A stretch of DNA of 19,793 nucleotides from contig JBHEMM010000039.1 of the NCBI GenBank assembly GCA_046262595.1, positions 1 through 19,793 of the forward strand, read 5' to 3'. The stretch is from Vulcanimicrobiaceae bacterium. GTDB lineage: Bacteria; Vulcanimicrobiota; Vulcanimicrobiia; Vulcanimicrobiales; Vulcanimicrobiaceae. A program made the position numbers. Below are positions 12,001 to 15,000 of the stretch, in pieces. Position 1 is the first letter of the stretch; every line of letters starts with the position of its first letter.

Positions 12001-15000
12001 CCCGATTGAACGTTCTTAAATTCACGCTTTTTGCGTGTTTTGGCCTGTTTCTTCGCTGCCATCGGTCCCCAAAGTGTTTCTTTATCCTGGCCGCTCAACG
12101 AGAACGGTGTCGTCGCCTCGACTGATCAATGGTGAAACCATCGCTTCATCTGATACGCGGGTCCGCGGCGAGAGGATCCGGGCTGCGCTCGTGCGGCTAA
12201 AGCACTGCGCGGCACGCCCGAAGAGAGATGACGGGCGCCAAGGCGTTATTCTACCGGAGCCGGCCGCCCGGGTCAAGCCCATTTGTGTCACCCGAGATCG
12301 AAGCACCGACGGCTCACACGGACCGCTGAAATGCTTCGCCCGGCGAAACCGCTTGCATGCTTCGACCAGCCCAGCAGACCGCTCGCACAAAAAGGCAAGG
12401 GCCCCGGCCGAAGCCGGAGCCCTTGTTCCCGATCTGTTAGCCTGCGCGATCCGCGGGGGCCGAAGGCCGGGAGGCGTGGAGCGCGAAGCGCGCATACGCC
12501 TTTTTTTAGAAGTGAATGCCTAACCCAATGTACGGGCCATTGTGCGTGACATCCGACGGAGCGTTGGTCTTGTTATTCAGGCGGTCGCCCAAATAGCCGA
12601 AGTCCAGGAACACGCCGCCCGGGGTACCAAAGTTCAGCGCGCCGCCGATTTGGTACTTGAGCATGCGGTACGAGAGATCGAACGGGCCCGTGGGGCAAAC
12701 CGTTACATCACACGTGCCTTTGATGCTCGGGTAATAGTACGCGCTGCCGTACAGCGAGAACGGTTTGTCGAGGTCGGGCAGTTTTTCAAGCCCGAAGCCA
12801 ACACCGGTTTGACGCGGATAGCCGTAGTTGCTGCTGCGCCACAGGTAGCCCACGCCGACGTAGATGCGCGGTTCTGCGATGCGCAGGCCAACGCGTGCGT
12901 CGATGTCGCGATCGCGGCCGATGAACGCCGGCACATACGTGGAGCCGGCACCGCCGATGACCGTAACGTTACACTGGGAACCCGCCGGAGCAGGAGCCAA
13001 GTCGGAACAGTTGTGCGCGAACGCGTAGTTGCGGAAGTCGCCTGCGACCATCCAGGGCAAGTTGAACAGATTGAACTCGAGTGCACCGCGAAGCGCGTAC
13101 GAGCCGCCCTTCTGACGGTTGCCCGGGCTGAACTCGTTATAGACCTGCGGGTTGAACAGGTAGTCGCCCGCGATGAAGTGGTCCTGATACGGCGCTGCGG
13201 CCGGAGCAGGCGTCGCGGTAGCTGCCGGCGTCGTCGGCGTCGGTGCGGTGACCGGAGCCGGCGGCGGAGTCGGCGGTGCGTAACGCACGACGACGACGTG
13301 CTGATCGGGAACCCATTGAACGTATGCGCCCATGCCCTCGGAAATGACGCGCACCGGGACCAGAATCTGGCCGCGGTACATCATCGGGGGCACATCCAGC
13401 GGACGCGTCTCGCCGTTGATCGTGACTTCCGCTTTCCCGAGCGTCACTTTGACGTCGGAGCCCGGTTTGGTCACGTCGACGGTACGCGTTGCCGGATCGA
13501 ACGCAACGGTTGCGCCCATTTGTTCGAACATCGAACGCAGGGGCACGAGGATCGTTCCGCCGCGCACGAGCGCAGCAAGAACGCGCCCTTGCCTAAGGAC
13601 ATCGGGTTTTGCATACACGTGGTGATCGTTGAACAAGATCGGCACTGTGCCCGAGGGCGGCGCACCGAATTGCATCGGCGGAGCCGATACGGTGTTGGTC
13701 GTTGTCGGGGTCGTTGTCGGGGTCGTTGTCGAAGCCGGTGCCGTCGTTGCGGCGGCAGCCGGAGATGCGCTTGGCGTAGCCTGCGCGATCACGTTGTGTC
13801 CTACGTTTCCAAGTGATGCGTGACTTGCCGGAGCAGCGACTGCAGTGAGCCCTAGACCAGCTGCGATCAGCGTGGCCAAGAGTGCGGTGCTCAGTCGATT
13901 CAAATTAAATGCCTCCTAATAATACTGGGGCATGAGCCCTAGGCAGTATTCCCAGGTTCGGCGCTCCTAAAGCGGGAGCGGTAACCCGGGTAGACGCCAT
14001 ATCCAGGCCACGCCACCCAACACCTCAACGCAAGAAAGCACAAAAGCGATGCGCCCGGCGAAATTATTTTGCAAACCAGGCAAGCAGCCGATAGCCAGAG
14101 TGGCGAGGGTCGGTGCCGCCACCTGAGCGAGCAGGAGCGCGAGGTTCCACACACCGAGTGCCGTTGCCGCGTGCGCCCGCGGCACGAAGCGGCAGCCGAG
14201 CGCCCAGTCGGCGGTAAGGAAGATGCCCCATCCGCCGCCGGCAAGCGCTGCCGCCAGCGCCATGCCGGGCCATGTCTGCCGCGTCACCAGCAGTGCAATG
14301 CTTGCCGCAAAAATGCCGCCGCCGATGCTCACCAGCGCCCGCCGATCCCAGCGGTCGGCCGCACGCGCGCAAAGGGCCGCTCCGGCGGCACCTGCGGCCG
14401 TCACGATGAGCAGCAGATAACCCGTCTGCGATCGCGCCGCCGGTTTCCCTAGCACTTCTTGCATGAAGAAAAACACATAACCCAGCAGGGTGTAGAATCC
14501 CACATACATCAGCGTGCGGGAAAGGAAGAGGTCGACGTAAGCGCGGTTCGCAGGCAAGCGGTCCTGCGGCTGCAGCGCCGGCGGCTTGAGCCCTTGCGTA
14601 TATGTTGCCGTTACGGCGCACGTGATGAGCAGCCCGGCGATAAGCAGCGCGGCGACCGCTCGGGCGTTGGCGACGAGTGAGGCGGCGATTGCTCCGGCGG
14701 CGTTACCGGCACTTTGGAGGCCCGCCATCCAGGACGAAGCCGCGCCCGCGCGTTCGTCGGTGACAAAATCCGGAATGACTGCTTGGTACGGGCCAACCGC
14801 CAGATTCATGCCGATCTGCACGAACAGCACCGCCGCGAAGAGTTGGGCGTATGAAGCGGCGGTGTAAAACCAAAAAATCGCAGCCGATGCGACCAGCGTA
14901 CCTGCGGCATAAAACGGTGCGCGCGTCCGCAGACGGTCCGAGGCAAAGCCGGCGCCGATCTGCGTGAAGCCGGCTGCAATTGCGCCCGACGATGCGAGCA

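Follow-up and report, generated by a model that had tools for sequence, protein, structure and literature searches.

A copper-amine-oxidase-N domain joined to a ten-stranded barrel as a candidate outer membrane-wall tether in Vulcanimicrobiia devoid of OmpM

Introduction

What could hold the outer membrane to the cell wall in bacteria which have lost OmpM? The question is raised by a gene of a Vulcanimicrobiaceae bacterium (assembly GCA_046262595.1, hereafter G000), located in the window, i.e. the whole stretch of DNA analysed, 19,793 nucleotides of contig JBHEMM010000039.1. OmpM is presented as the tether of diderm Terrabacteria, in which CsaB and SLH domains co-occur, in passages of 10.1101/2021.05.31.446380, and an outer membrane is visible by electron microscopy in one cultured species of the class Vulcanimicrobiia, according to passages of PMC9758169. 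The genome-wide survey's note singled out proteins carrying a Cu_amine_oxidN1 domain (PF07833, "stalk") and an outer-membrane barrel as candidates for linking outer membrane and wall where OmpM is lost, a proposal which the data reported here support in part, and which is still conjectural. Throughout, 150 genomes of the phylum, at least 85% complete, have been compared, 93 belonging to Vulcanimicrobiia and 57 to other classes. One of them, G116, is unpublished, and contributes solely one OmpM-bearing class genome, one tree row and one example of an SLH domain missed by Pfam.

Results

The gene and its surroundings

The features of the locus are listed in Table 1. The encoded protein ends with the residues GPYIGLGIHF, and the gene is surrounded in the window by ribosomal-protein and tryptophan genes. 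The gene had previously been thought to begin at 13792, but this limit omits the signal peptide, which is restored by moving the start to the TTG at 13903, preceded by an AGGAGG box. Orthologues open with the same signal-peptide motif as the TTG-started frame; the database gene call (P0002) begins still later, at Met77. Three genes of the same plan had been reported in the genome, and three stalk-barrel genes are indeed present (contigs C39, C18 and C52), along with two genes encoding the barrel only (C59 and C12). The codon use of the stalk-barrel gene falls in the 82nd percentile when measured as likeness to highly expressed genes, in the 19th when measured as CAI, after removal of one out-of-frame row; codon bias is weak in this genome, and as a proxy of abundance ambiguous, the two measures disagreeing. 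No RNA data set is listed for this stretch, a result with no bearing on expression.

Table 1. Features of the stalk-barrel locus, in window coordinates
Feature	Position	Strand	Basis
Whole gene, stalk-barrel outer-membrane protein	12506..13903	-	465 aa open frame, TTG start, stop 12508-12506
Ribosome-binding site AGGAGG	13912..13917	-	sequence; 8 nt upstream of TTG start
Sec-type signal peptide, residues 1-23	13835..13903	-	sequence; ends AVA
Ala/Thr/Pro-rich, length-variable segment, residues 24-76	13676..13834	-	sequence; outside the well-modelled part
Conserved N-arm, residues 77-109	13577..13675	-	near-invariant columns, FGxPPSGxIPILFNDxHVY
Cu_amine_oxidN1 (PF07833, stalk), residues 110-205	13289..13576	-	Pfam E 5.9e-26
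Pro/Thr/Ala linker, residues 209-239	13187..13279	-	alignment; no helix in model
Outer-membrane beta-barrel, ten strands, residues 242-465	12509..13180	-	model, fold searches; C-terminal Phe
Intrinsic-terminator-like hairpin, strong	12396..12425	-	13 bp stem, T tail; downstream of the stalk-barrel gene

Signal peptide, stalk and linker

The order of parts described earlier, namely signal peptide, Cu_amine_oxidN1 domain, Pro/Thr linker and C-terminal barrel ending in Phe, was confirmed. The signal peptide is plausibly cleaved after AVA, and a cysteine lipobox is absent from its sequence. According to a simple hydrophobicity rule, a signal-like N-terminus is found in 71 of the 78 homologues long enough for the test. 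The segment spanning residues 24-76 is probably disordered, and the conserved arm which follows has pLDDT below 50 in the monomer model. The stalk domain matches PF07833 with 91 bits against a curated gathering cut-off of 24.2, and is the sole Pfam family over cut-off in the protein. In fold searches 75 residues align with the N-domain of the E. coli amine oxidase, at Z 9.5 and rmsd 1.9; AMIN domains are not among the fold matches listed for the model, which are dominated by the barrel. Among 135 alignment rows the linker is 24-44 aa long (median 34), and made of 42% Pro, 18% Thr and 18% Ala. The length of the stalk is by comparison nearly constant (97-99 aa), and arm and stalk are better conserved than the barrel, mean pairwise identity being 80% vs 59%, with the former value exceeding the latter in 99.8% of 2000 random pairs.

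The barrel

Folding of the whole protein as a single sequence gave a pLDDT of 33.8, and an alignment of 145 rows was used instead to build an AlphaFold2 model (pLDDT 84.8). In this model the stalk domain is followed by a linker devoid of structure and by ten C-terminal barrel strands. The closest barrels are those of OpcA (Z 18.1, rmsd 4.1, 205 residues aligned), Dot/Icm porin I (Z 16.9, rmsd 3.3, 196 aligned) and pOmpT (Z 16.2, rmsd 3.5, 199 aligned), the same folds named in the survey (Foldseek E 3e-6 to 5e-5), sequence identity to the three being only 7-17%. No Pfam family covers the barrel in a Pfam search at E up to 1, and the barrel profile matches no PDB chain by sequence; the same profile matches 381 clusters at 50% identity. 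The autotransporter/OpcA likeness at 0.95 previously drawn from the Atlas holds as to the score, but that cluster ranks only tenth, the top feature matches being unnamed proteins at 0.95-0.96. Signal peptide, an even count of amphipathic strands and a C-terminal aromatic residue, all typical of outer-membrane barrels, occur together in the protein, and the last residue is F or W in 119/119 homologues.

In 135 full alignment rows, one face of the barrel bears long loops which vary and contain cysteines (L2 is 18-56 aa, L4 1-24 aa long), the other short turns; both barrel ends are on the short-turn face. In outer-membrane barrels this face is, as a rule, periplasmic. The pattern of loops and turns in model and alignment, together with the high conservation of the stalk, suggests that the PF07833 domain is periplasmic. 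For the same reasons, and because of the constant length of the stalk, a surface passenger, the alternative raised in the survey's note, is unlikely, and this alternative is weakened. Judging from its size, the barrel probably serves to anchor the protein in the membrane, and any channel through it would be narrow.

Distribution of barrel and stalk

As anticipated, the barrel occurs in every genome of the class (93/93, 1-6 copies). That it is near-absent outside the class holds for the faint matches, found in 3/57 genomes, but a profile, which had included two of the matches concerned, gave weak matches in 23/57. Two of the homologues from other classes, read whole, are barrel-only proteins of about 240 residues. 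The barrel predates the class, and the trait peculiar to Vulcanimicrobiia is the fusion. The figure of more than 2,400 homologues was not reproduced, since 678 proteins among 1358 candidates were counted, under different search settings; the statement that the best 120 listed carry PF07833 holds for 119 of them, and fails for one. The names of distant barrel homologues are uninformative. Named homologues come from Vulcanimicrobiota/Eremiobacterota, and the best 80 genome loci include 65 assigned to these groups, 12 from bacteria of no stated phylum, and 3 titled Acidiferrales.

A class-type stalk (E < 1e-50) was found in 91/93 class genomes and in 0/57 genomes of other classes, where the best stalk E is 8e-23. 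In 36 genomes, loci were observed where a single frame encodes both stalk and barrel. Of the longest 69 among 150 listed representatives, 35 carry PF07833 and three another N-terminal family; in one representative of 1378 aa (P0126) DUF11/DUF5979 repeats precede the barrel. The two barrel-only paralogues of G000 both reside inside DUF4331/TPR/NicO clusters, a setting which suggests a role of the barrel in transport, and implies that it also functions when no stalk is attached.

Truncation of OmpM

The claim that OmpM has been lost is borne out: an OmpM-type start, made of SLH and coiled coil, occurs in 57/57 genomes of other classes and in 30/93 class genomes, and was not found in G000 by the OmpM profile. 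Pfam recognises SLH in 56/57 and 42/93 genomes, respectively, and detects none in the stalk-barrel protein or anywhere in G000; some of the matches in the class fall in frames some 300 residues long, which have three SLH domains and resemble lipoproteins. The divergent OmpM of G116 was missed by Pfam SLH and found by the OmpM profile, hence class genomes may host unrecognised wall-binding domains.

In OmpM-bearing genomes ompM follows lptB, lptF/G, DUF3084 and a ruvX-like gene (3/3 controls). The same slot is occupied in 17/17 OmpM-less genomes examined, G000 among them, by an SLH-less frame which retains the final OmpM strands. Across the sample, 25 genomes encode the OmpM C-terminus in frames of 878-1109 residues, and 67, including G000, in short ones; three of the 67 retain another, shorter SLH-OmpM elsewhere. 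A remnant without SLH or coiled coil, diverging far more than the stalk-barrel protein does, is retained in 63/63 OmpM-less class genomes, and could itself contribute to tethering. Its syntenic position rules out that OmpM is missing only through assembly gaps.

On the best rpoB trees the OmpM-less state requires three changes, two of which are forced, one in a large clade including G000, the other in G096, a member of another family; the idea of many independent losses was rejected on these grounds. Grouping of G073 with the large OmpM-less clade was not rejected (p-AU 0.128). G126, whose rpoB is partial, was omitted from the trees, G104, G136 and G117 from one of them, and one tree analysis used 22 of 47 rows. 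As only two losses are forced, the 63 OmpM-less genomes are not independent observations.

The class-type stalk is present in 63/63 class genomes without OmpM, and the two class genomes without it both retain SLH-OmpM. As already noted in the survey, the stalk protein is also found along with OmpM, in 28 of the 30 OmpM-bearing class genomes. The mean number of barrel copies, 3.2 with OmpM and 2.95 without, does not rise with the loss.

Envelope genes in OmpM-less genomes

That the OmpM-less lineages are monoderm was rejected, given Omp85, lipid A and Lpt genes. Omp85 was found in 67/67 genomes tested, among which 62 of the 63 OmpM-less ones, and G000; BamA is kept in 62/62 OmpM-less genomes tested, and lipid A and Lpt genes reside within envelope clusters in the two genomes inspected, G000 and G093. 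CsaB makes the ligand of SLH domains. Its gene is present in 92/93 class genomes and in G000, including 62/63 OmpM-less genomes, within a DUF5693-csaB operon at 5/5 loci read. No SLH match at all was obtained in 50 of the 63 OmpM-less genomes; csaB is present in all 50, and PF00691 is likewise unmatched in 18 of them.

Other known anchors were searched for. Covalent tethering by an L,D-transpeptidase was discarded, as the YkuD family matches in none of five genomes, G000 and four single-contig OmpM-less ones. The same five genomes have no PG_binding_1 match, and four of them a single short frame with LysM. OmpA or Pal was also discarded: PF00691 is patchy (56/93 class genomes), and of the five matches read one is MotB-like, the other four being on proteins without a barrel. 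The sole PF00691 match of G000 is presumably MotB. Among the families searched, no other recognised wall-binding domain was found on a barrel in G000 and the four closed OmpM-less genomes.

The stalk as a movable module

Genus g4 has five genomes (G149, G043, G071, G135 and G093) in which an unrelated barrel, some 470 residues long and weakly matching OprD, is preceded by the same arm, stalk and linker. The stalk of five intact g4 frames is 75-77% identical to that encoded in the window, and the OprD-like barrel of G147 has no stalk. By sequence comparison the stalk is thus a movable module, which has been transferred to a second, unrelated barrel. The event parallels the move of a cyanobacterial SLH module to another porin, described in a section of 10.1101/2021.05.31.446380. 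One of the copies in G043 looks frameshifted.

PF07833 resides in G000 also on an Amidase_3 wall hydrolase, a peptidoglycan amidase, and is described as common in wall hydrolases in part of PMC4137172. The domain of OlpC that resembles copper amine oxidase binds secondary cell wall polymers, as stated in passages of PMC4582956, which cites Pinheiro et al., and of PMC11557425. This one precedent, linked to the stalk by the description of the family, and the context of the domain suggest that PF07833 may bind the wall here too.

Discussion

Relation to known systems

The stalk-barrel protein resembles several envelope proteins in part. OmpA features a small N-terminal, 8-stranded barrel, a proline-rich hinge and a periplasmic domain which binds the wall non-covalently. 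As in OmpA and OprF, a small barrel, a proline-rich hinge and a periplasmic domain, here a proposed non-covalent wall binder, are combined; unlike in these proteins, the order of domains is reversed, the strands are ten rather than 8 (Z ~9 with OmpA), and PF00691 is absent. The plan called OmpA-like in the survey can therefore be retained as no more than an analogy, given the differences in the order of the domains, the size of the barrel and the domain used for binding. Omptins have conserved catalytic His and Asp residues; no barrel column has His in at least 60% of 51 rows, and Pfam finds no omptin, hence an omptin protease was rejected. In type Va autotransporters the barrel is 12-stranded, and its pore is threaded by a helical linker. 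Membership in this group was rejected as well, given the ten strands, the absence of a linker helix in the model, and of a Pfam Autotransporter match. The protein shares the ten-stranded fold (Z 16-18) with OpcA, the omptins OmpT/Pla and Dot/Icm porin I, but low identity (7-17%) and lack of Pfam or PDB sequence matches set it apart, and the chains compared are barrel only. Absence of a Pfam match at E up to 1 excludes OpcA (PF07239) membership, the likeness being in fold only.

Like OmpM, Mep45 and SlpA, the protein has a signal peptide, an N-terminal periplasmic domain, in this case a putative wall binder, a spacer and a C-terminal barrel, often occurs in several copies, and belongs to the same clade, diderm Terrabacteria. 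In contrast to OmpM, PF07833 takes the place of SLH, and a Pro/Thr linker that of a trimeric coiled coil; there is no sequence relation, and true OmpM is encoded by a separate gene in class genomes. Ten strands also differ from the 16 of Veillonella OmpM1, as given in a passage of PMC10628300. A domain of the same kind, as likened by the family description, is found in the cell-surface-binding module of OlpC/ScaG from Acetivibrio/Clostridium thermocellum, where it anchors cohesin outside a monoderm surface, whereas here it is fused to the outer-membrane barrel of a diderm. The N-domains of PaSOD and E. coli copper amine oxidase belong to the same Pfam family, the latter with a fold match, but the two proteins are soluble enzymes, and no oxidase or dismutase domain is found here. 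By the features examined, the stalk-barrel protein is outside the OmpM, OmpA, autotransporter, omptin and OpcA families. No published account of a PF07833-barrel architecture, or of OmpM truncation, was found in a literature search which left out subscription papers, among which a 2025 Terrabacteria review, and bioRxiv supplements.

Function of the stalk-barrel protein

We favour, with some confidence, the view that the protein is a non-covalent tether between outer membrane and wall, similar to OmpA and OmpM but built from other parts. The syntenic truncation of ompM, the maintenance of csaB in genomes devoid of SLH, and the presence of the stalk on a second barrel argue for it; the periplasmic topology predicted by the model, the conservation of the stalk, higher than that of the barrel, and the OlpC precedent, known from the passages cited above, point in the same direction. 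Weighing against it are the co-occurrence with OmpM in 28 of the 30 OmpM-bearing class genomes, the barrel copy number, which does not rise with OmpM loss, the small number of forced losses, the ambiguous codon bias, the roles of the barrel in stalk-free paralogues, the retained OmpM remnant, and, as detailed below, the non-SLH probes which left cells unlabelled, the dimer interface formed by PF07833 in PaSOD, and an SLH domain which does not anchor its adhesin. Signal peptide, terminal Phe, barrel model and the BamA gene suggest that the protein would be exported by Sec, and then inserted by BamA. The N-terminus of the barrel would face the periplasm, and the PF07833 domain would be suspended there by a flexible linker some 30 residues long, if the deduced topology holds in vivo. 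The domain, aided by the conserved arm, would grip the wall, most likely a secondary wall polymer linked to peptidoglycan. A second anchor may have arisen early in the class, freeing OmpM from the need for its SLH part, and at least two truncations of OmpM would then have followed. Distribution, synteny and tree are observed; that the second anchor caused the truncation is what we infer from them. A more specific hypothesis is that PF07833 domains replace SLH-OmpM by reading the same CsaB-pyruvylated wall polymer read by SLH. The maintenance of csaB in all the 50 class genomes without OmpM and SLH would follow, yet we regard this hypothesis as possible rather than probable.

Alternatively, wall binding by the stalk may serve just to hold a channel or receptor barrel in place or to make it stable, the load in OmpM-less cells being borne by something else, for instance TamB, the remnant of OmpM, or a lipoprotein as yet unrecognised. 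This is rather unlikely in our judgement, though the existence of barrel-only paralogues, which in G000 lie in DUF4331/TPR/NicO clusters suggestive of transport, the occurrence of the stalk on an OprD-like porin, the conservation of the remnant and the barrel copy number, unaltered by OmpM loss, all fit it, and the SLH on the Veillonella outer-membrane adhesin VtaG sets localisation, not anchoring, according to a passage of 10.64898/2026.01.22.700529. Such a division of labour would have to be reconciled with a remnant which lacks SLH and coiled coil and diverges far more than the stalk protein, with the class-type stalk kept wherever OmpM is missing, and with the absence, among the families searched, of another recognised wall-binding barrel in G000 and the four closed OmpM-less genomes.

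Less likely still is that PF07833 is a module for oligomerisation, or for binding periplasmic proteins, which pairs barrels or organises the outer membrane with no contact with the wall. The PF07833 domain of PaSOD forms a dimer interface, as described in part of PMC10432803, and the low pLDDT of the arm in the monomer is that expected of a swapped or partner-bound segment. The domain of PaSOD is, however, a half-size variant, with a different fold according to its authors in the same source, whereas the stalk matches the E. coli N-domain over 75 residues; dimerisation and wall binding are, moreover, mutually compatible. The preprint 10.64898/2026.09.23.753664, in the passages concerned, only predicts wall binding by Cu_amine_oxidN1, as the survey's note had warned, and reports that four non-SLH probes, a set including copper-amine-oxidase-N candidates, left cells unlabelled even after envelope disruption, which would suit oligomerisation; a trimeric SLH probe likewise failed to label cells. 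The frequency of PF07833 on wall hydrolases (part of PMC4137172), including the amidase of G000, speaks against a domain unrelated to the wall, and csaB maintenance would be left unexplained. Very improbable, finally, is an adhesin, either autotransporter-like, with the N-terminal part as surface passenger, or OpcA-like and acting through its loops. OpcA is the closest fold, the tenth-ranked Atlas cluster bears the autotransporter/OpcA name at 0.95, repeats precede the barrel in P0126, and loops L2 and L4 are strongly variable and cysteine-bearing. Against this, the model has ten strands and no helical linker, autotransporter barrels reach Z 8-8.5 vs 16-18 for 10-stranded barrels, the stalk is the most conserved part and almost constant in length, and PF07833 outnumbers other N-terminal families 35 to three among the 69 longest listed representatives.

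Significance

How outer membrane and wall are linked is a core element of ideas about the transition from diderm to monoderm cells. The OmpM gap in 63 of 93 class genomes needs explaining whatever the stalk-barrel protein does, and the protein is the obvious candidate to fill it. If the more specific hypothesis, of PF07833 domains which read the CsaB-pyruvylated polymer, is true, PF07833 tethers would represent a new class of outer-membrane tethers beside Lpp, Pal, OmpA and OmpM, and break the rule that diderm Terrabacteria depend on OmpM alone; a very widespread domain would gain a defined ligand.

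The ompM slot, and proteins with SLH-like or OmpA-like domains

In the genome of the window, the place of ompM after lptB, lptF/G, DUF3084 and a ruvX-like gene is held by an N-terminally shortened OmpM remnant devoid of SLH, and an equivalent SLH-less remnant resides at the same slot in L196-L209, L212 and L213 (L numbers are genome loci read). Every one of the 63 OmpM-less genomes of the class retains the remnant as an open frame, as do the genome of the window and three others; its recognisable strands are too few for the ancestral barrel. L193 (contig C11 of the genome of the window), L194 and L195 carry a conserved outer-membrane cluster of tamB, bamA, three ompH-like genes, lpxD and lpxC, which, contig permitting, also includes lpxA, lpxB, lpt genes and the ompM slot.

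A lipoprotein-like protein of ~300 residues with several SLH-like repeats is retained in some OmpM-less genomes (L097, L111, L112, L114) and may likewise make use of what csaB produces. C-terminal OmpA-like domains occur patchily among class genomes on non-barrel proteins of ~800 and ~330 residues (L120, L121, L122, L123).

Alternative architectures and gene order

The stalk module is also found in a second family, joined to an OprD-like barrel of ~470 residues (L164-L167 and L214, genus g4). Such genes form tandem pairs in genomes G149 and G043, and G147 (L215) has the OprD-like barrel without the stalk. Rare architectures featuring the barrel of the stalk-barrel family (homologues P0126, P0165, P0196, P0246, P0253) include DUF11/DUF5979 repeats (P0126, 1378 aa), two barrels per chain, pentapeptide repeats N-terminal to the stalk, and N-terminal regions without an assigned family. 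Record titles from another phylum (Acidiferrales) are attached to L288, L293 and L294, three of the 80 top-ranking genome loci, and may reflect mislabelling, misbinning or transfer.

In the window, rpsM and rpsK, usually neighbours, are split apart by four genes; the order MFS, stalk-barrel, rpsK was found again in 4 of the 7 related loci read.

Coordinates of features in the genome of the window
Feature	Location	Coordinates
OmpM remnant	C42 (L210)	6653-7741
Region where DUF72, NTP-transferase-like, MFS transporter and stalk-barrel genes separate rpsM and rpsK	window	12098-16784
Predicted sigma-70-like site upstream of rpsK	window	12276-12248
Most divergent stalk-barrel paralogue	C52 (L190)	5285-7476
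Barrel-only paralogue	C59 (L191)	6276-7202
Barrel-only paralogue	C12 (L192)	4985-5701

Paralogues

Stalk-barrel genes frequently occur in tandem, as two or three diverged copies (L104, L106, L013, L033, L043). The C52 paralogue is followed, at most 10 bases downstream, by an ice-binding-like (PF11999) gene. Both barrel-only paralogues lie immediately after a DUF4331 gene and are clustered with NicO-family transporters, the C59 cluster including a TPR gene too, and this context suggests that they play a role in metal uptake or as surface proteins.
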